Part shown: positions 1 to 42,476 of the stretch, piece by piece | How positions within the stretch are numbered: the stretch's first letter is position 1 | How the letters are laid out: each line of letters starts with the position of its first letter | Source of the DNA: Octopus vulgaris | Taxonomy: Eukaryota | Length of the DNA: 64,000 nucleotides | Direction: 5' to 3' | NCBI GenBank assembly: GCA_951406725.2 | Contig: OX597832.1 | Location: 62,001-126,000, forward strand | Notes under the pieces: generated by a model | The model's database searches: none | What the model was told of the DNA's origin: nothing | What the model saw: the letters and a program-made list of their open reading frames with translations, nothing else | Program-made: the position numbers and the translations under genes

Positions 1-44
1 CCCAGGCCGCGCACATTTAAACAACCAACATAAATGTAATCCAT
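1..44 (-). CDS. Start of Tx1 ORF2 (APE endonuclease N-terminus)
   Basis: Translates MDYIYVGCLNVRGL, matching the APE motif I (LNVRGL) and KLGCLNVHVL of the ORF2 at 38931. Confidence 0.75.
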   Translation of the reverse strand, partial: MDYIYVGCLNVRGL

Positions 45-53
45 TACTTACCT

Positions 54-1403
54 TTATATCAGTGGTTCGGTTTTTTCTTCTTCTTCCTTCTCTTTTTCTG
101 GGCCTCGTGGGGGAGTCTGACGTAGGCCCTCGAATATATGTGGAGATGTTACATCCAACCTAAGTGGGCCTACGTCATGGAAGAATTCTGACTTTATCCG
201 CCCGTAATCCTTCCGGTCTATTTTGTAAATTGCAAAGTCATTTTTTTTTCTACTCTCTTCACATTGGCCATGGCTGCCAACACGTTTCCGAGTCTGCTAT
301 TTGATGCTTTTACGGCCATATATGAGTTCATTGACTCTTTTTTCTTTTTTAAAATTACTCTGGGAGGGGTGGTTTCCGTTTTTCTTTTTTTTTTTCCGAT
401 AATTTTTGCCCACCCCTCCTCATTTATCTTTTCTTCGCTCTTTTTTTCTCCGCCGCTGGTTCTGCTGTTACCATCACCTCCACACCTTCAGTCTTCCCAT
501 CTGGGCCGTCTGACGCTGCTTCTGGTGACACATTGTCTTCTTTTCCTTTTGGCTTAGGTGCTTCCTGCGGTTTGGGTTGGGGCTGGCATTCCGCCCTTAC
601 ATGCCCCTTCTTACCGCAGCCGAAGCACCTCGGCTTTCTGCCCTCTACGAAGACTGTGACTCTTTCATCTTCGCTTATCCTAAGAGTCTCTGGGATCTCT
701 TCCAGGGTTTGTACTTCTGCTTGTATGGCTATTATTATCTTTTGCCCTTTCCAGAATTCTTCTTCTTCTACGGTGGCCTGGAGGATGTTTATTTTTTCCT
801 CCAGGCCTACCATAACTGCTGCCACTAGGACTTCGGCATCCGCTTCTGGCGGGATGTTGTTCATAGTGATTTTGGAAGTTCTCTTGCCTTTATACAGGGG
901 TAGGAGAACAATATCCTCCGCTTTTATGGGTTCCATGGATAGCTTCTTCGCTACCTCCTCTGACGTGAATCTCACCTCCACTGTGCCGTATTTCTTCCCT
1001 CGATTGATATACGTAATTTTATCCATTATTGGCTTTAAGCAGTTTTCAATCTTTTTCTCCTCTATTTTTTGGATTGCTCTGTTTGTTATACTGAATGTCT
1101 TATAGATTATTCTCCTATTCGAAATATCCTCCTGTATTTGGGCGTTTGAAGCCACGGTTACTTCCGTGCCCTCTTTTGACACACAGTCCGCATGTTTTCC
1201 CAGGTTGTCCACGTTAATTTTTTTAATTTTCTTCCCAGCCACTTCAGCGAATTTTTTTGCTGGAGTTGATGCTGGTACTGGTTTTACCATTTTCTTGGGC
1301 GACGCCGCCTCTTTTTCTTCGGCGACAGCGCCTCTTTTTTTCTTGGCGACAACGCCTCTTTTTTACTTGGCGACAACGCCGGGTATTCATCCTCGCTCGT
1401 CAT
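54..1403 (-). CDS. LINE ORF1 (gag-like RNA-binding protein, zinc knuckle); core ORF 424-1290, extended across homopolymer frameshifts
   Basis: ORF 424..1290 carries a CX2CX4HX4C knuckle. Adding one base at the runs 1312-1316 and 441-447 joins an upstream ATG (1403, MTSEDEYPALSPSKK...) and a downstream EEGWAKIIGKKKRK segment. That segment resembles QEWVVIGPSKRKRK in the 37989 ORF1. The end at 54 needs a third +1 at 241-249 and is less certain. Confidence 0.7.
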
Positions 1404-1661
1404 GGGCGAATAAGTGATGGGGGACTCCATTTTGAACAAATGGCTTTAACAAGCCTTTGGTAATCTAAATTAATTGTAGTTTTCCCCCACTGAGGGGGGA
1501 ACACCAACGCGAAGTCTTCGCGCGAAGGTTGACTTCGTCCGTTAGACAACAATGGACAAAAAAAGGTAGACCAACAGTATATAATAACAGAGATAAGTAG
1601 TATGAGAGCAAAAATATATATCAACTTACTAATAACGCAATAAATTGATTTCCTCCATGTG

Positions 1662-3428
1662 ATTTTATTACTACCCACAAGGGGCGAACATAGAGGGGAC
1701 AATACAATCGGGGAACTTAAAATAAGAAAGCGAAATGACAAGAAGGGAAAAAATAAAAATAAAAATGACAAATGAAAGAATATTTACAATGAGATGCAAA
1801 TGCCCACTCGATCCCCGGAATCGAGAGGTTACATTTTCGTCACATATAGTTCACAATTTTTTTTTCCTTTTTTCTCTTCTTTCTTCTCTCTCCTCTCACA
1901 ATCTCACACGTATTCCATAATACCTTTCAAGTCTCTAAAGTCAATCACTGAGCCCTCAGGCAGCCGCTCTTTCATTCGAACACCCGTGTAAAAAATTACA
2001 CTCTCTCCAGCTGCTCTGAGGAACTCAGCGACTCTTTCTTCGGGGATCAGAGCAGTCTCCTGCCACTGATCAGTCATCCTGTTGACCCACACATGTCCCT
2101 CCATACTACATGTCAATTCCTTCATTTCGGGGCTGAAATGGAAGGTTATTAACTTGTAGTAATCTTGTTTCCGTCCTACGTTTTCTCTCGTTTTTCTTTT
2201 CGGGCTTACTTCTTCCTTGTTCTCCTCTCTTTGTTTCTCTCTTTCTCTCTTTTTGCCTTCTTTTCTTTCTCCTTCCTTCTCTTGTCTTTTTGGTTCTTTG
2301 TCTGTTCTCTCTTTCTCTCGTGTTTTATGTTCCTTTTCTTTTTCTTTTTGTGTGCCGTCTTTTCTTTTCGTTTGATTCTGATCTCTCTCTTGTTTTTTTC
2401 CTGTTGTTTCTTTTTCCTTTTTCTTTTCCTGACTCTGTTTTGGTTCTATTTCTTTCTTTTCTTTTATTTCTTTTTCCTTCATTGACTTATTATTTCCTTT
2501 CTCTTGTTGTTTTGTTTCCTTTTCTATGTTTTCTTTTTCATTTACCGTATTCTTCTTTTCGAGTTCCTGCTCGCACTCCGCTACGAATTCGTATAACGGG
2601 CACTCTTTTTTAATGTGCCCCCTTGTCCCGCACAAGTAGCAGTTTGGCTTTCTTCCCTCTACAATTACACTGAGGGTTTTCTCGTCTTCGATTTCTATTC
2701 TATAGGGGAACCTTTCAATGTCCTCTTTTGTGGCCATCAAACACAGTTCTACCCCATATCCTCTCCAATTTACTGCGTTGGACTCCTTAAAGGATTCCAC
2801 CTCCACTTCCTCTTCTGCTGCTCCTAGAATAGCTGTTGCCAGCCATTCTGTTTTTACTTCTGGGGGTATATTCGGGATTTTAACCCGGACCCCTCTTCTT
2901 CCCTTGTATGAGGGCCACATTATAAATGTTTCCGCTCTTAGAACAGTGGTAGCCAGTGAGGCTGCAATTTCTTCCGTTGCACATCTCACCTCCACCGTAC
3001 CAAATTTTTTTCCTCTACTCACGTAGGTCGATTTATCCATTATGTCTCCCAGACATTTTTCGATCTCTACTATCTCCACTCTTGCCAGTTTCTTTGTACT
3101 TTTGTCCTGGGTTCTATACGTTACAGTCTTGTTTTCTTTGTCCTCTTTTGCTTTCGCGGGGGGATTAGCTTCACGCTATCACCCTCCCTTTTGAATAGCT
3201 TTTCATATTCTTTGATTTTACTTTTCTCAAAGAAAACATCCTTCACGATTATCGACGAATCATTATTTTTCTTTCCCGTGACCCCCGCGTAAGTCGCCAT
3301 GACTAGAGGGTCAATTCACCTTCTTCGGAAGGTTTCCACAGGTGGAGGCAAACGCCTCGCGCGATATTAATCACTTTACACAACAAAATTTCAACTTCTA
3401 ATCACAGATAACAACACACGTGGGTAAA
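1662..3428 (-). mobile_element. ORF1-only non-autonomous non-LTR retroelement (HAL1-like, Tx1-derived) with 13-bp TSD
   Basis: Flanked by identical TTTCCTCCATGTG at 1649-1661 and 3429-3441. Contains a short 5'UTR, one gag-like ORF and a Tx1-style 3'UTR ending in AATAAAAT. No endonuclease or RT sequence. Confidence 0.8.
1904..3300 (-). CDS. ORF1 (gag-like, CCHC knuckle, charged C-terminal region)
   Basis: ORF 1904..3079 has CYLCGTRGHIKKEC and RGKKFGTVEVR, homologous to ORF 424..1290. One extra base in the G6 run at 3158-3163 joins it to the ATG at 3300 (MATYAGVTGK). Confidence 0.78.
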
Positions 3429-3965
3429 TTTCCTCCATGTGTTCAAATCTTTTTTTCCTCTACATTGTATACTTTATAGACAATAGTCTTTTCTTTAATT
3501 TAATTTTTTATTATCCATCTGGACTATTCCATTTCTGCACGCTAATTTTATTTTTAATTTATTCCCATTCATGTGAAACCACTTATTCAAGTTCAAGTCA
3601 TTGATGCAATTTCATACCAATTGCTATTTTTACTTTTGTTATGTTACGATTATATTATACTTTAGTTTGATTTTAACTATTACTTACTACATATAATTCA
3701 ATTGTTATTATTATTTTTATTGTTAAAGTGAAAGTATCTGACATAAAATAGAGAAATGTTTTTGTTTCACTTTTAACACGTAATACTGAAATAGTGGAGA
3801 AGATATGATATTGCTATGGGCTTGCCCTAGTCAAGAAGTTGAACATTTTTTTTGCCCATGAAACTACTTGGATGCTAAGTAAGGCATGTGTTAAATTTGA
3901 ATGAAATTGTTTGTGTAGTTCTCAAGTTTTAGGGAAACACTCAGACAGACAGACACACATTCTCA

Positions 3966-3970
<5 letters not shown>
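3429..3970 (-). mobile_element. Non-autonomous Helitron, 5' half, interrupted by retroelement insertions
   Basis: Near-identical to 4542-5090; the similarity ends exactly at the 13-mer 3429-3441. Confidence 0.8.
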
Positions 3971-4009
<39 letters not shown>

Positions 4010-4010
<1 letters not shown>

Positions 4011-5099
4011 TAGCATTAAAGACCCGTCGTTGCCGGGTCATAGTGCTAGTGCATGTATATATGTGTACATATGTGTCTTGCAAACAACTTGCACGTGCAA
4101 GTGCTACCAGTTAAAAGCTCCATATATCGGAAGCTAGCAAGTGTATTGGGTCATCTACACATAAAATACAAAATACAAAGCTATATCTTGATATTGCTAG
4201 TGATAACAATACTCAAAATACTCAAAATATATAACAGACTGGAATTGTTAGCCCGTCTCTTGTAATTTCGATCAATTGTATCTTGTCCTCCCTCTTGTAT
4301 AGAAGTGTGGCTACAATCCTGCCTACCTCTACTTCGGGGGGTGGGGTGGGGGGCATTAAAAATTTTTTTCCGGAACGTCCTACGTCCCAGATATAAAGGT
4401 AAAAATAAGATATTTCCACTTTGTAAGTTCGAGTCGAGTACTCCCTTGCATGCTCCGTTGACTCGAACCTTGCTTCTATTGTGGCGAATTTACCGCCTCT
4501 GATACCTTTCATAGTCGCACCAAGACACTTTTCGAAGGCGCTTTCCTCCATGTGTTCAAATCTTTTTTTCCTCTACATTGTATACTTTATAGACAATAGT
4601 CTTTTCTTTAATTTAATTTTTTATTATCCATCTGGACTATTCCATTTCTGCACGCTAATTTTATTTTTAATTTATTCCCATTCATGTGAAACCACTTATT
4701 CAAGTTCAAGTCATTGATGCAATTTCATACCAATTGCTATTTTTACTTTTGTTATGTTACGATTATATTATACTTTAGTTTGATTTTAACTATTACTTAC
4801 TACATATAATTCAATTGTTATTATTATTTTTATTGTTAAAGTGAAAGTATCTGACATAAAATAGAGAAACATTTTTGTTTCACTTTTAACACGTAATACT
4901 GAAATAGTGGAGACGATATGATATTGCTATGGGCTCGCTCTAGGCAAGAAGTTGAACATTTTTTTTTTTGCCCATGAAACTACATGGATCCTAAGTAAGG
5001 CATGTGTTAAATTTGAATGAAATTGGTTGTGTAGTTCTCAAGTTTTAGGGAAACACACAGACAGACAGACACACATTCTCAGTTTTATATATATAAAGA
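4010..5099 (-). mobile_element. Complete non-autonomous Helitron carrying a captured LINE ORF1 fragment
   Basis: Minus strand: 5'-TC (5099) with a (CTGT)n tract near the 5' end, subterminal hairpin CCCGGCAACGACGGG and 3'-CTAG (4010-4013), inserted between A and T. Confidence 0.85.
4222..4605 (-). pseudogene. Captured Tx1 ORF1 fragment inside the Helitron
   Basis: KTIVYKVY...MEESAFEKCLGATM..RGGKFATIEARF..PPEVEV..EDKIQL aligns with the two neighbouring ORF1s. Confidence 0.75.
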
Positions 5100-5110
5100 T
5101 ATATATATAT

Positions 5111-5271
5111 ATATTCTGTTGTGTCTGGGGGAGAGTCATGTTCTTTTTGTGCCATATAATTTAATGCAGTCACTGGTAAAATTTTAAGAAAATAAAAAAT
5201 AAGTGGAAATTTTACTGGTGAAATTATATGGCACAAAAAGAAAATTGCTCTCCCCAGACACAACAGAATAT
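5111..5271. repeat. Inverted repeat, arms about 65-75 bp (MITE-like or inverted PLE terminal repeat)
   Basis: ATATTCTGTTGTGTCTGGGG..TTCTTTTTGTGCCATATAATTT on the left and its reverse complement on the right. Confidence 0.7.
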
Positions 5272-5339: not shown

Positions 5340-8300
5340 CATGAAGCCAGACAGCCACCTTATAACCTATCAATCAGGGAACTGTGCTAGCCAGATTGAT
5401 TTCATCCTCACCAGACAGTGGGATGCAGGGTTGCTCTTAAACAAAGATCTTCCCATGTGAAGAATGTACTCCCCAGCATAGGCTAGTCATTAGTAACTTT
5501 AGGCTAGAGGCCAGAAGGATACCTAGAAGCAGACCAATCCAGAAAAGAGGATTTGGAAGCTAAAGAACCCTTCACACAGTCAGAGATTTAGGGACATCCT
5601 CATCAAGAAATTTGATGAGCGGGAGGAGGAGCTACAGACGTCGGACATAGAAGGTAGCTGGAAATTCCTATGGGACAGCTTGCTGAGTGCCATCGACCAA
5701 GTCTGTGGATGGTGCAAAGTCCCTTCCAGACCCATTGGTATGTGGTGGTGGAATAGTACGGTAGACAAAGCCATTAGGGCAAAGAAACAAGCGTGGAAAG
5801 CCTGGAAGGATGGTGGTAGCAGGGAACGGTACCAGGTAGCCAGAAGGGAGGCTGGACTGCAGGTATACATAGCCAAGGGCGAAGCAGAAAAGAAGAAGTT
5901 TGCCAATGTCCAGAGACGTGAGGACCAAAGAACTGAAGTATTTCAGATTGCAAAACAGTGTGTAAGAGAAAATTGTGATTTCACAGGAGAGAAATGTGTT
6001 CGAATGGATGATGGTGCACTTGCTTTTAGTGATTCTGAAAAGAAAGATGCTTGGAGAAGCAATTATGAAAGACTGCTGAATGTGGAGAATGAATGGGAGG
6101 AGGAGAGCCTTCCAAATGTTGACCCAGTAGAGGGACCAGCTATCCCAATAGAGAGCTCCCTAGTAGATAAAGCAATTAAGGGCATAAAGCCAGAAAAAGC
6201 CCCTGGCCCATCAGGAATCACTGCTGAGATGCTTAAAGCATCTGGTGGTGTAGGCTATGGCCTAGTCACCCGCATTGTAAACCAGGTAGTACATAACGGA
6301 GTCATACCCAATGACTAGCGTAGCAGCACCATATTCAACTGCTACATGGGTAAAGGTGATGCTCTAGATCGGAATAACTACAGGGGTATTAAACTGCTGG
6401 ATCAGGTGATGAAGGTTACAGAGAGGATCATAGTTCATCTCATTAGGGAGAGAGTCTGCTTAGATGAGATGCAGTTTGGTTTTGTTCCGAATAGAAGCAC
6501 CACTGATGCCATATTCCTGGTTCAACAACTGCAGGACAAATACCTAGCTAAAGATAAACCCCTCTACTTGGCTTTTGTGGACTTGGAGAAAGCCTATGAC
6601 AGGGTCCCCCTATCCCTTATCTGGTGGGCAATGCGGAAACTGGAGATTGATGAATGGTTGATAAGGGCTGTACAGGCCCTATACAGAGAGGCCGTTAGTA
6701 AGGTTAGGATTGGCAACGAGTATAGTGAAGAATTCCGGGTCCACCAAGGTTCGGCCCTTAGTTCCCTTCTATTCATCATAGTCCCCCAGGCAATAACAGA
6801 GGAATTCAAGACGGGTTGCTCCTGGGAGATCCTCTATGCTGATGACCTGGCCCTACAGGAACTAGAAAAGAAATTTCGGGTGTGGAAGCTAGGTTTAGAT
6901 TCAAAAGGCCTTAGAGTCAATGTAGCAAAGACCAAAGTTATAGTAAGCAGAAAGGCGAACTCATCACACACACCCTTTAAGCAGGTGGCCCTGTTTGATC
7001 TATAGAAATGGTGTAGGTAGAAACTCCATAAGATGTACCCAGTGTAAGCTATGGATGCATGAGAGGTGCAGCAACATCAAAGGAAAATTAACCGAGAAGA
7101 TAGCTTTCATGTGCGGCAGATGCACAGGGGCAATAGACACCACAGATGCTCAGAAAATTGATTCCATCACACTCCAGGTGGAGAAACTAGAAGTAGTTGA
7201 TAGTTTCTGCTACCTAGGTGACCAAGTTAGTAGTGGAGGTGGATGCTCAGAGAGTGTCACCACTATAATACGAATAGCCTGGGCAAAGTTTAGAAAGCTC
7301 CTACCCCTACTGGTGACAAAGGGTCTCTCGCTCAGAGTGAAAAGTAGATTGTACGTTGCATGTATGCGAACTGCCATGCTTCATGGTAATGAAACACGGG
7401 CTGTGACTGCAGAGGACATGCGTAGGCTTGAAAGAAATGAAGCTAGCATGATCCGCTAGATGTGTAACATCAGTGTGCACACTCGACAGTGTAAGCACCC
7501 TGAGAGAAATGCTGCACATAAGAAGCATCGGATATGGTGTGCAAGAGAGACGTTTGCGCTGATATGGTCATGTACTACGGATGGATGAGGAGAGATGTGT
7601 GAAGAATTGGCACTCTCAAACAGTTGAATGTATCCGGGGGAGAGGTAAACCCTGGAAGACATGGGATGAGCTAGTCAAGTATGACCTTCGAACGTTGGGC
7701 CTTACAGAGGCAATGATGAAAGACCGAGATCTCTAGAGATATACTGTGACTGCAAAGACCCGACAAATAATGTGAGTTCATGGCTGCTTGCTACACCAGT
7801 TTCGCATAGCCTCAACCCATCCAAAGTACCTTGGATTGCAGAACGACCTGCTTTGTTTACCTTGGATCGTAGGGTGACCTGCTGTGCTTGAGAAGACCTA
7901 TTGAGTCAAATACATCAAAATAAATATCAAATGGAAATTGTAGTTGTGATACCTATGCTGGCGGCACGTAAAAAGCACCATCCGAACGTGGCCAATGCCA
8001 GCGCCGCCTTGACTGGCTTCTGTGCCGGTGGCATGTAACCTGCTGTGCTTGAGGAGACCTATTAAGTCAAGTACATCAACATCAAAATAAATATCAAATG
8101 GAAATTGTAGTTGTGATACCTATGACAGTGGCACGTAAAAAGCACCATCCGAATGTGGCCGATGCCAGTGGCGCGTAAAAAACACCATCTGATCGTGGCC
8201 GCTGCCAGCCTCCCCTGGCACTTGTTCTGGTGGTACGTAAAAAGCACCCACAACACTCACAGAGTGGTTGGTGTTAGGAAGGGCATCCAGCTGTAGAAAC

Positions 8301-37899: not shown

Positions 37900-40800
37900 A
37901 TGAAAAGATTATATTTGGGGGACAATATTAACAGTTAGCTCATGAAAAAAGACAGCAAGCAGATTAGTGAATAGATGATACATTTTAAGTGTTGGATGCC
38001 GTTGACTGTTCCGTCATTCTCTATCTTGTTCTCATGGGCCTAGAGGATAAAATTACCATTCTGCAGGCGACCAGCTACCACCACATGAACTGGGTCGGAC
38101 AGGCTTTAGAGCTGGTCATTCAAGTAAACCCCCTTGATTTGAAAGAAATGCCAAATTCAATTTTAATTGGGGAAAATACCAGCCTGATGGTGGTAGTCGA
38201 GGGGTGCAAGCCGAGGTGTTATAAATGTGGCGAGAAAGGCCACATAATGTCGAATTGCGAGAAGGAAAAAGACAACGAAGATGCAGTAGAAAAGGCAAGT
38301 GCACCACCAAGTAAAACGACCACACCACTAGAAATAGCAGCCACGTTGCACACACAGACAAAAGAACACCCAGCAGCATGGGAAGACACCAACAACAACC
38401 AGGAGTGGGTTGTCATTGGACCATCAAAGAGAAAGCGGAAACGGAAAGACCCCCCCTTTCGGATACACAGAATTATCCACAAATACAGCCACAAGCACAC
38501 ATGTAGCCAAGAAAACACACGCACTAAAAAAAGCACAGGCATCCACAAGCACACACACACCTACAAACACCCACACATCTACAAGCACACATACACCCAC
38601 TCCTCCACATTCACTAATAAAAATGATAAACAAAAACAATAAACTCTTACGAGAGAAAATGCTATTAATGAAGTCATCGAAAAAATATAATGTAGCAGAA
38701 TCAAACAGTTCTATTCTCGCAAATGCCAAATTTTACACTGTTTCAAACTAAAAAATCATTTGCGGAGGATGTCGGCCCGTTACAGATTAACTTCCTGAGT
38801 CATTTGTAGAGGCAATTTTCAAAAATGACTGCGCAAACCACAACACCTACAGACAGGAAAGAAGAGGGTGAAACTATACTCTTCATCCTCTTAAAACTGT
38901 AAGTTTTTAAATAACAGTTAATTTTTCACATTGTCGTTTAAACTCGGTTGTTTAAATGTACATGTTCTGGGTTCAGATTGGAAGCAAGGCTGTCTCCTTG
39001 ACGACTTCAGGTTGCATTGTTTGGATGTGGTTGTAATTACCGAATCCGGACTGAGTGGGTTGCAGGCTTTTTCACCCCTCCTAAACAGCTACGAGAAATA
39101 CGTTTCTCCCTTCCGACCAGGAGGGGGTGGAGGGGTCACAATGCTAGTCAGGAAAAACCTGGATTTAGAGATGAGAAGTGTCTTTATAGATCCAGAAGAC
39201 AGGCTAGTTGTTTTGGATGTGATGCACATCAGTGGTAAAGTGTTTAGGCTGGTTGTTGTCTATGCTCCCTGCGAAGGAAGAGCCATACAGTACGATTACT
39301 TCAGAAGCCTAGAGAATTTTCTAGGCATGCCGAACATGTTAGTATTGCTAGGCAATTTTAACACAATCTGCGATGCACGCGTAGATTATGTTGGCTTGAG
39401 ACAGGATAGGAGGGGATACCCTTGCCTCAGCGGTCTGCTAAGTCGTTTTGAGTTGGCAGACTGATTCAGACTGGACTATCCAGATCTTACATAGAATCAT
39501 TACAAGAAGAAAAGATAAGAAAATACTTAGCTGTCCACAACACCATATCGTCAGCTACAGTAATCACAAATTAGTGACCTGTATGCTTGACTTAGATAGT
39601 ATGTGTAGACGAGGTACAGGTTACTGGAAGCTAAACAAGTCGCTATTGGACTGTGAAGCCTACAGGAACCGGATTAGACAGTTAGTAATGAGGGCATTAA
39701 CTGGATCCATTATCAACAACAAATGGTGGTTTGCCCTCAAAAGAGCCATAAAATTCGAGTCAATTAGGTTTAGAAAAGAATTAGCTAGTGCTAGAAACAA
39801 AGTAGAAAGGGAGCTAGTTGAGGCAGTAGAAGAGGCAATGAGGTCAGGCTGTGCATCAAAAGTGTTAGTGGTGAGGTTGGCACTAGACCAACATCTCAAA
39901 GCTAAACATGTTGTCAGGGCGAAGATACATGCAGTGAGACAGGAAGGGATCAATGCAGTTGGATGAGCCTGGGTGGTGGAGAGCCAGCGTGGCAACAACT
40001 CAATCATTCTGTCTTTGACAGACCCACATGGTTGATCAGTAAACAAACCTGAGGAGATGTGCAAGGTGTTTCACGATCATTTCGCCCAGCTTTTCAGGAG
40101 GGGCGGTGGACTGGAGCATGGGGAGAAACTCGCAGACTTTCTGTCCGGTTCACCATGTCTCTTGGGGCAGCATGCAGAATCTTGTGAAGTGCCGATCATA
40201 GCCAAGGAGGTTGAGGATGTGTTGGCAGACTGCGGTGGTGACAAATCACCGGGACTTGATGGTCTGCCTTACAAACTCTATAGTAGCATGCCAGACTTGT
40301 TTGGGCACCTACATGCAGGTGTGTACACCAACTGGCAGCAGAAAGGGAGAATTCTTAAGTCTGTGAGCTGGGGGTGGGGTGGGGTGTAGCGCTGTTAAGA
40401 AAGAACCCAAACAAGGGGGACTTAATTAATAATTTTCGGCCCATCACTCTGCTTAACGCAGAGTTGAAGATTTTGGCCAAGGTCTTAGCAAAAAGGTTGG
40501 CATGGGTTTTGGATGGACTTGTTGGCGAGGTGCAAACGTGTACCATCCCTGGCAGGACTGTTCACGACAAACTTCCTTTTCTATACTATGCATTAGAAAG
40601 GGTAAATAGGGTTCCTGGCAAGGGTGGAGCTATGGTCAATTTAGACCAATCCAAAGCATTCGATAGGGTGGACCATCAGTATCTGACGGTGGTCCTCATG
40701 GTGGCTGGCTTTGGCCTGACCTTCTGTAGATGGATCACTGCTTTATACAGCAACATCGAATCGCTAGTTCAGGTGAACAGTTTCTTTTTGGAGCCGTTCT

Positions 40801-42476
40801 GCATTGAATGATTAGTATGTTATGGGTGCCCTCTCTCTACATTTTGGCCCTCGAGCCATTGCTGAGGAAGTTGGAGGCTATGAGGGGCTCTCCGCAAGAT
40901 CTAGGGTGCAGAAAGTCAGTTTTGGCGTATGCTGATGACATCACCATTATTGTATCCCGGGTCAAGCACTTACAGTGTGTGGGTGAAGCCTTAAGGGATT
41001 ACGAAGCGGTGGCAGGAGCGAAAATCAACCAGGATAAATCGGTTGGCTTGCAACTCAGCACCTGGAGGAGCAAGTTGATGCCTTCCGACAGTGTCATGAG
41101 ATGTTAGACGGAAGGGCCAGTGAAAATGCTTGGAGTCTGGTTTGGTCCAGATCTCCAGATAGAGAAGAATTGGAGCAAGGTGGCTCTCCTAACTCAGACC
41201 TGGTTTGAGCAGAGGCTATCCTTAAAAGGGAGGGTGGAAGTTGCAGAGGTGTTCATCGCCTCTGTAATCAGCTACCGCCTGACCATCGTACCTTGCCTAG
41301 ATTTGTGGCTGAACAAGGTGGAATGTGTGCCCTTCCACTTTTTGTGGAGGGGCAGCAGACCTCTTGTAAGGTGCTCTATCTGCTGCCAAAAGCCACTGAA
41401 GGGTGGGCTAGGGATGCTGTAGCTAAAAATGTGCAGTTATGTGCTGAGGCTTAGGCACCTCTGGCTTTACCTGTACAGTGATCAGGTGTGGTCTGCATGA
41501 AAATGTTATTTCTGCAGTTCACATTGTTTTCTGGACTGGACCCATGGATCATGTGTAGACCAAGGTTGGGTGCATGGCATGCAGAATGCCATCAGGCACT
41601 AGTGCTTCTTTCCCAGTTGGGCAACACCGGTAGCGGGTGTACTACCTCGTTCTTCTCTAGAAGGTTAGTAGAATTGAAGCGTGATGACATCCTGGGAGAA
41701 ACCCTAGGCTTCGATGAAGATCAACTTACCAACCTATTCCAAAGAACATTCAGGCCAGGGCCTATGGATAATTACCAGAAGTCCCTGGCCTGGCTATGTT
41801 ACAGAGGAGCTTTACCGGTTCGAGGTAAGCTCTGCCGGTTTGTGAAAGATGTGAGCAAGACAGTGAAACTGTCCTGCACATGATTGTGCAATGCCCAAAG
41901 ATGACTGAACTTTGAGCTTATGTCGAACACCTTCTGTCGCATTCGAGAAGTGTACAACTGTCAAGCGAATCTGTAATTAAGATCGTTCCGCTGCCCTCGC
42001 TGAATAGGGAGGAGTGAGCTTGTTTTCTCTCGGTAGTTGCTGTTGCAAAAGAGGTAGTATGGAAGACGAGAGTGAAAGGAATTGCAATAGGCAGTTTCAT
42101 CTCCAGTCTCGGGTTCATTGACTTTTTCGTTTTCCACATGAAACAGAGAATAAGGCTGGAGAAGAAATGCCTGTCACAAAGTGTGTTTCGTAAAAGATAG
42201 AAGTCTGTAGCTAGCATGTTGTGAGTGAAAGAACCTGTCTAAACGAGAAGAAAAAAAGGGAAAACAACAAAGTCTTCAGTGTGAGAATGTGGTTTGTGGG
42301 GTAGACCGTGTCCTACGCTTCATTTTATGTTTATACATTCATTCGCATTTTATTGTATATATTTAAAATTATTTATGCATATGTTTTGTCCCATTTGATC
42401 CCCTGACCCTGTGTTTGTTTTGTCTGTCCTCATATCGTCCCCTCTTTTTCTTAACTTTATATGGTAAATAAAGAAA
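37900..42476 (+). mobile_element. Decayed Tx1/L1-clade LINE (ORF1 + ORF2 + 3'UTR)
   Basis: ORF1 knuckle CYKCGEKGHIMSNC. ORF2 GCLNV, LLGNFN, SNHKLV, GTGYWKLN, KSPGLDGLP, FRPITLLN, DQSKAFDRVDH, YADDIT, GGLGM. AATAAA near 42467. Confidence 0.9.

Follow-up and report, generated by a model that had tools for sequence, protein, structure and literature searches.

The locus described here lies at the start of a 64,000-nucleotide stretch of Octopus vulgaris DNA (contig OX597832.1, in the following C19; the whole stretch, C19:62001-126000, is called the window) and consists of retroelements stacked inside a Helitron-like transposon, all read on the minus strand. An intact, empty copy of this host occupies window 4010..5099 within a TA run; it begins with TC, carries a subterminal hairpin and ends in CTAG. 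It contains two unoccupied targets: site 1 at 4542..4553 and site 2 at 4234..4245, the latter being used elsewhere in the genome by a sister lineage of the long interspersed nuclear element (LINE) introduced below. The adjacent non-autonomous host copy is interrupted: its 5' half is found at 3441..3987, its 3' half at C19:52598-53132. At the junction of the 5' half with the inserted elements lies a 12-bp spacer (3429..3440), followed by a non-autonomous element of 1.77 kb (family A, 1661..3428), which possesses a single open reading frame (ORF), ORF1, and no remnant of ORF2. A second 12-bp spacer (1649..1660), a regenerated target, separates this element from the 5' third of an autonomous LINE of the L1/Tx1 group (family C, 1..1648), which is 5,246 bp long and continues to C19:58403. 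The ORF of family A (1904-3175, 423 aa from stop to stop) encodes a zinc knuckle and a lysine- and glutamate-rich tail; ORF1 of family C spans 424-1362, and the start codon of its ORF2 is at 44. Both families share a 47-nt 3' tail (1663..1709 in family A), which is 91-94% identical. Compared with the contigs of four public runs, each ORF1 in the window is one base short (after 1311 and 3157, respectively), so these two copies appear to contain a frameshift or an assembly slip. The contigs of these runs, two of them presumed RNA runs and two unlabelled runs assigned to other organisms, cover 29-30 of 30 bins of window 1-3960; among the contig pieces listed, none bridges a spacer with 31 letters on both sides, so that the coverage has no bearing on transcription.

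An earlier note, which was based on the window alone, had described a 13-mer at 1649, 3429 and 4542, and this sequence is exact at all three positions. In agreement with the proposal that one Helitron copy is broken at the 13-mer, 3429-3979 is a 97.7% repeat of 4542-5095, and the likeness ends exactly there; the ORF1-only unit and the subsequent 5' end of an element with ORF1 and ORF2 were likewise found on the minus strand. Extending the sequence leftwards should then have revealed the end of the LINE, a third 13-mer and the missing half of the host. The LINE end and the host half are present, the segment holding the latter (C19:52598-53144) being 99.3% identical to window 4009-4553, but two complete long elements precede the family A unit instead of one (C19:53145-58390 and C19:58403-63648, the second of which ends at window 1648). 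The third 13-mer was recovered in part: the spacers behind the long elements match only 12 of the 13 bases. This is why the postulated 13-bp duplication had to be replaced by a constant part of 12 bp; the 13th base occurs only in the host and in units whose tail ends in C. In plus orientation, the full locus reads host half, spacer, C, spacer, C, spacer, A, spacer, host half. A deletion or an assembly chimera was considered as well and is rejected in view of the left extension and the recurrence of the junctions at 114 loci. Just left of the stack (C19:51,054-52,586) lies another host copy, which is more diverged and has the other variant of the site; the start of the contig therefore carries a small cluster of host copies.

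Site-specific insertion into the Helitron-like host, shared by autonomous and ORF1-only elements, holds throughout the genome. A search for element ends with flank-free queries placed 28 of 30 family C ends and 28 of 30 family A ends at the host site or at a stack spacer, both numbers referring to the best-scoring copies only. Exact patterns yielded 917 empty sites and 114 right ends of stacks; 303 tails of the A/C type and, with a slightly different pattern, 194 tails followed by an in-register spacer were found, and all reversed controls gave 0. The first 100 of the 303 tails in positional order were tallied by hand: 73 are at site 1; 10 are at site 2 of the same Helitron or probably in stacks there, 5 of them directly on the host; 6 are at site 3, which belongs to another repeat; 2 are at a fourth site and 9 elsewhere. 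Several of these last nine start with ACAT, and the 5' junctions of five off-target copies displayed no clear duplication; the ACAT start may stem either from the choice of the endonuclease or from annealing of the RNA. Site 2 has 12 exact ends genome-wide, and A-like, K-like and B units also occur at sites 2 and 3. For Tx1 elements, a preference for a multicopy target has been assigned when more than 20% of the flanks agree (PMC4494074); for family C, the corresponding values are 28 of 30 among the best-scoring copies and 73 of 100 among the tails taken by position. Of the two variants of the host site, one is preferred: ACATGG was counted by hand in 29 of the first 100 empty and in 88 of the first 100 occupied sites (Fisher p 5e-18), an excess to which the age of host subfamilies could contribute. 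In the same 100 occupied sites, the last unit is of LINE type in 64 cases, of family A in 8 and of the B group in 28 (hand count). Two young LINE copies at C25:30.667-30.673 Mb, the only parsed region without a host, are joined at their 3' ends to the head of another tRNA-like repeat, at a point where 6 bases match the target.

The ends of the host were scored at 30 loci; in the site comparison, 1 of 30 host loci remained unmatched. At 18 of the 22 loci where the 5' end could be located it reads A|TC; the 3' end is CTAG in 24 of 26 cases and is followed by T in all 26. A GC-rich hairpin lies about 10 nt before the 3' end (z -6.0; 0 of 200 shuffles). By these structural features, the host is classified as a putative non-autonomous Helitron.

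ORF2 of family C comprises 1132 codons from stop to stop and contains an APE endonuclease, a reverse transcriptase and a zf-RVT domain (PF03372, PF00078, PF13966). Its best match in the PDB is human L1 ORF2p (E 4e-65, residues 3-867), and 20 of 39 family C units retain an ORF2 of at least 1100 aa. A CCHC zinc knuckle is a feature of ORF1 in the Tx1 clade; the CCHC motif in ORF1 of family C has a Pfam score of 14.2, which is under the cut-off. Among 23 homologues, 22 are unnamed and one distant match (25%) is named TX1, and the label Tx1 is assigned here on structural grounds.

For a comparison of stacks, 44 regions were fetched, three of which lack the left half of the host and one the right half (the off-target pair on C25). 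Parsing of 43 of them, which were seeded with the elements of the window and over-represent LINE-ended stacks, gave 191 units: 80 of family A, 39 full copies of family C, 66 of a B/D/E/F group (1.6-1.85 kb) and 6 singles. The single non-autonomous partner assumed at the outset is thus replaced by at least three divergent ORF1-only lineages, which use the site and a similar tail. A CCHC ORF (PF00098 in family A, E 7e-5) is present in 146 of the 148 non-autonomous units, with an ORF1 frame of 1.1-1.5 kb; a tblastn search for ORF2 remnants in these 148 units gave 0 matches. ORF1 of family A is 37% identical to that of family C over 186 aa, and the likeness at the DNA level is confined to the last 47 nt. 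Among A, B/D/E, F and C, the ORF1 cores are 28-39% identical. Where the proportion of synonymous differences (pS) is not saturated, the proportion of non-synonymous ones (pN) is well below it (0.03 vs 0.21 for D/E, 0.12 vs 0.69 for A/L). These data indicate that the ORF1-only units are old lineages under selection and not decayed copies of family C. The idea that such an element is an internal deletion of the present LINE was rejected, as the ORF1 core is only 34-37% identical to that of C, pS is saturated and only about 47 nt match. Families A, B/D/E, F, K and L accordingly resemble the HAL1 type in having ORF1 without ORF2, and differ from it in that they did not arise by deletion from the present helper LINE. 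The SINEU type, which is characterized by a head derived from small nuclear RNA (snRNA) and the lack of an ORF, does not fit either, since the units carry an ORF1 frame. Whole stacks without a LINE exist, and an ORF1-only unit is last in 36 of the first 100 occupied sites; such units therefore enter sites on their own. The common site and tail suggest that their RNAs are mobilized in trans by the LINE, and they likely keep ORF1 for packaging their own RNA. For a conserved fold of the 3' tail there was no support (z 0.23 and -1.37). One common 5' end of family A, as at window 3421-3428, starts with the reverse complement of a part of the element's own 3'-tail motif; other copies of family A start like the 5' end of the LINE.

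An inspection of the parsed stacks revealed a nearly fixed 5' to 3' order of B group, A and C: only 1 of 150 adjacent pairs is out of order, compared with 23.6 upon shuffling (minimum 15; three pairs of the A/K/L type were omitted from the shuffle). The longest stack contains 22 A units and one C, that is, 23 units in 44 kb. The spacers do not behave as clean target-site duplications (TSDs), contrary to what had been expected of the 5' spacer: among the 26 complete stacks headed by a unit of the short or long type, 15 have unequal 5' and right-hand spacers. Of 62 informative 5' spacers, 39 are identical to that of the 3' neighbour and 3 to the right spacer of the host; after possible local duplicates had been dropped, the respective numbers were 14 and 3 of 33. 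This inheritance of spacers from the 3' neighbour points to insertion in front of resident units, probably with an error-prone 5' junction. In all 14 parsed stacks led by a B unit, the host is joined 11-14 bp upstream of the site and the left 12-mer is absent; among seven further complete stacks ended by B, five have the same left junction and two do not. Moreover, seven internal units of the B group start with 30-70 nt of host sequence unlike the local host, and the leader of eight B units within Helitron stacks derives from the site-3 repeat. The flank sequence of these units is therefore RNA-borne.

The anatomy of the stacks, the fidelity to the site, the preference for one variant of the host site, the order of families, the inheritance of spacers and the RNA-borne leaders are thus observed; what follows is deduced from them. 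We assign a probability of roughly 0.8 to the following reading: at more than 100 loci, a LINE and at least three ORF1-only lineages are lined up head-to-tail at one 12-bp site of a Helitron-like host, and the LINE's ORF2 protein likely nicks this site and copies its own RNA as well as the ORF1-only RNAs. The protein would nick the 12-mer and reverse-transcribe its own RNA into it, and the ORF1-only RNAs would be copied in trans through the shared tail. Very probably, the mechanism is target-primed reverse transcription that starts at the 12-mer's 5' edge; a second, staggered cut would then restore the site. New units would be placed before older ones, either at the left-hand host junction or at an internal spacer, which we regard as probable. 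RNAs of the B group bring 5' flank sequence with them, are joined to the host 11-14 bp upstream of the usual junction and remove the left 12-mer; the absence of A and C units on the 5' side of B units would be accounted for in this way. A more tentative extension, which is rather unlikely to be correct as a whole, is a pecking order in which the flanks of ORF1-only RNAs guide and rewrite the junction, such that only units of the same group can re-enter and the fixed order of B, A and LINE results.

Several observations weigh against this reading. About one quarter of the A/C-type tails lie outside site 1. The motif in the tail is generic: in a loose form it has 115,750 matches (65 in the reversed control), and all 30 loci that were read represent one and the same short interspersed nuclear element (SINE); consequently, the tail alone does not name the helper. 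Of the filtered spacers, 16 of 33 match neither the neighbour nor the host, and left and right spacers are unequal in 11 of 38 terminal units, so that a spacer is no faithful TSD. The left junction is uniform in the 14 B-led stacks although internal B units show other 5' ends, which is why growth at the 5' side must invoke variable nicking. Private substitutions do not reveal an age gradient: the 3' half has the higher value in 7 stacks against 4 for family A, in 3 against 6 for B and in 3 against 3 for C. Finally, the terminal LINEs are as close (mostly 0.1-0.3%) or closer to their nearest relatives than the units 5' of them, and these distances fit growth at the 3' side better.

The most serious alternative, to which we would give about one chance in four, leaves the system as it is but has every new unit enter at the right-hand spacer, next to the downstream part of the host; the RNA would supply both the 5' spacers and the leaders, and the order would reflect successive waves of B, A and C. 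The closeness of terminal LINEs to their relatives would follow, and it is in line with this alternative that leaders of the B group are demonstrably RNA-borne and that spacer variants recur across chromosomes. However, spacers track the locus and not the haplotype of the element: a unit's 5' spacer follows the leader of its nearest relative in only 5 of 68 cases, as opposed to the 39 agreements with the neighbour. In addition, a young LINE at C13 is flanked by two locus-specific variant spacers, B and D units have identical counterparts at other loci and hence do not represent an old wave, and the commonest B tail ends in C before the 12-mer (8 of 8) and in A before another B (21 of 21). That LINEs are usually last would also be accounted for if whole blocks were copied, a multi-unit read-through RNA being reverse-transcribed in cis by the terminal LINE. 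An A-C dimer pair (C19, C11) and a B-B pair (C23, C15) are indeed close in both members, and adjacent B units show a weak correlation (rho 0.24, p 0.03, 36 pairs). We nevertheless consider block copying improbable, as haplotypes of upstream units and LINEs showed no linkage (rho 0.17 with p 0.16 for 15 A>C pairs; negative for B>C and D>C, with 5 pairs each) and many stacks contain no LINE.

Unequal exchange and gene conversion, which would also homogenize spacers, might have produced all but one or two insertions per locus. Runs of identical units (p-distance 0) at C7:100.09, C22:41.95 and C2:138.77 suggest that three long arrays have expanded locally as well, and the same route has been described for R1 arrays (10.1101/158386). 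It is thus somewhat probable that unequal exchange enlarged some of the long runs. As the sole cause it is refuted by stacks of mixed families; adjacent units are 1-5% apart with their nearest relatives on other chromosomes, 5' ends are unit-specific, and the spacer signal survives the filter for near-duplicates, so that this explanation has perhaps one chance in ten. By far the least credible explanation is a single composite spread by rolling-circle copying of the Helitron, or an assembly chimera, even though the host is Helitron-like and tandem arrays pose problems for assembly: each locus has a stack of different content, the majority of host copies are empty, and the junctions recur as stated above. 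The host halves are 87-98% alike, whereas the long elements are mostly about 99% alike. Hence the suggestion of the earlier note that a rolling-circle transposon spread the target is valid for the empty target, which the host distributed earlier, and not for loaded copies. Insertion by the LINE's machinery in front of resident units remains the reading that we prefer.

Eight further intact ORF2s were compared with that of the window lineage. Two at site 1 are 97-98% identical to it; for the six from other sites, the identity is 93-94% overall and 89-92% within the endonuclease. In the alignment of the nine intact copies (1133 columns), the most variable six-column windows coincide with the loop after YAP (YAPN loop), which has one form in 7 of 7 site-1 copies and other forms, with insertions and deletions, at sites 2 and 3; the minor-groove hairpin of the endonuclease is nearly invariant. 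According to the match with the structure of human L1 ORF2p, the YAPN loop aligns with Asn118 of L1, which contacts the major groove (PMC8565326). We see an even chance that sister LINEs switched targets by means of this loop. As about five lineages underlie the association and further positions of the endonuclease vary along with the loop, it is a lead. A sister lineage with 92% C-terminal identity and many intact ORF2s forms tandem arrays with a spacing of about 5.26 kb at C27:32.96-32.99 Mb, C22:14.18-14.24 Mb and C30:10.44 and 13.36 Mb; the fetched examples are located within or close to the site-3 repeat.

Among known systems, HeT-A with TART and TAHRE likewise combines ORF1-only elements, head-to-tail arrays and a helper encoding reverse transcriptase; unlike the octopus elements, these belong to the Jockey clade and are added to chromosome ends without an endonuclease site. 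The closest parallel is the crocodilian Tx1-Mar with its partners SINEU-1/2/3 in Mariner-N4_AMi: there, too, the autonomous LINE and its partners use a common site within a non-autonomous DNA transposon, a TSD lies between tandem copies, two host positions are used by different families, and some copies have host-derived 5' extensions (PMC4494074). The octopus system differs in its Helitron-like host, in partners that encode ORF1 instead of carrying snRNA heads, in the youth of its copies (about 99% vs 85-91%) and in long, ordered stacks of several families (PMC4494074). Xenopus Tx1L, which inserts into Tx1D, is also an APE-type LINE whose specific endonuclease targets another transposon (PMC4494074, PMC1950540, PMC6719617); its host is of piggyBac type, and the parts of these sources drawn upon here do not describe ORF1-only partners or mixed stacks. 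HAL1 (half-L1) comprises non-autonomous elements of the L1 group with ORF1 only and several origins; it belongs to mammalian L1, and site specificity is not described in the part of the source concerned (PMC5753468), whereas the octopus cores are as distant from their helper as given above. Drosophila R1 arrays arise by repeated insertion at a regenerated TSD and subsequent expansion by unequal exchange, there with a single family and an rDNA target (McGurk and Barbash, 10.1101/158386). The overall architecture is thus already known from crocodilians and Xenopus, which limits surprise, and as far as the sources were drawn upon, Tx1L/Tx1D, HAL1 and R1 cover the other ingredients (PMC1950540, PMC1919474, PMC6719617, PMC8869645, PMC3747384, PMC5753468, 10.1101/158386). 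According to a repeat annotation of octopus, there are L1-Tx1 families that were active recently; the parts consulted do not analyse their targets (PMC13282606). In the literature that was searched, we found no report of a Tx1 family that targets a Helitron, nor of site-specific ORF1-only partners in ordered stacks; Repbase may list such families.

In the octopus stacks, site-specific LINEs and their passengers can be followed at sequence resolution and at a very young stage. Because near-identical endonucleases have different 12-bp targets, a change of APE-type specificity can be tested by swapping the loop; the variation observed here concerns the loop equivalent to Asn118 and not the hairpin, which was transferred in earlier grafting work (PMC1950540). 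Ancient ORF1-only lineages under purifying selection bear on the question of why ORF1 is kept in cis, and ordered stacks of up to 44 kb record the history of insertion and illustrate a route from site preference to satellite-like arrays.

The SINE detected by the loose tail pattern is about 240 bp long and very abundant; it has a tRNA-like head (A and B boxes by eye) and a Tx1-like tail, and was seen in C1:60,000-577,000. It also forms tandem units of 184 bp that start at a fixed internal point, and the initial bases of the following unit are often retained in solo copies; this pattern hints at self-targeting by way of read-through. A helper of Tx1 type is likely. A protein search for a helper, either of the SINE or of the B group, retrieved only relatives of at least 91% among the 143 scored of 25,884 candidates. 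One candidate for the SINE is an intact sister LINE at C3:23,591,800-23,597,500, whose last bases resemble the ending of the SINE and whose 3' flank looks SINE-internal by eye. Elsewhere in the window, 38946-42231 holds an element distantly related to family C, with 66% DNA identity in the ORF2 region, and 5527-7700 contains broken LINE fragments on the plus strand, which we take to be RTE-like and which are preceded by a short inverted-repeat element at 5128-5255.

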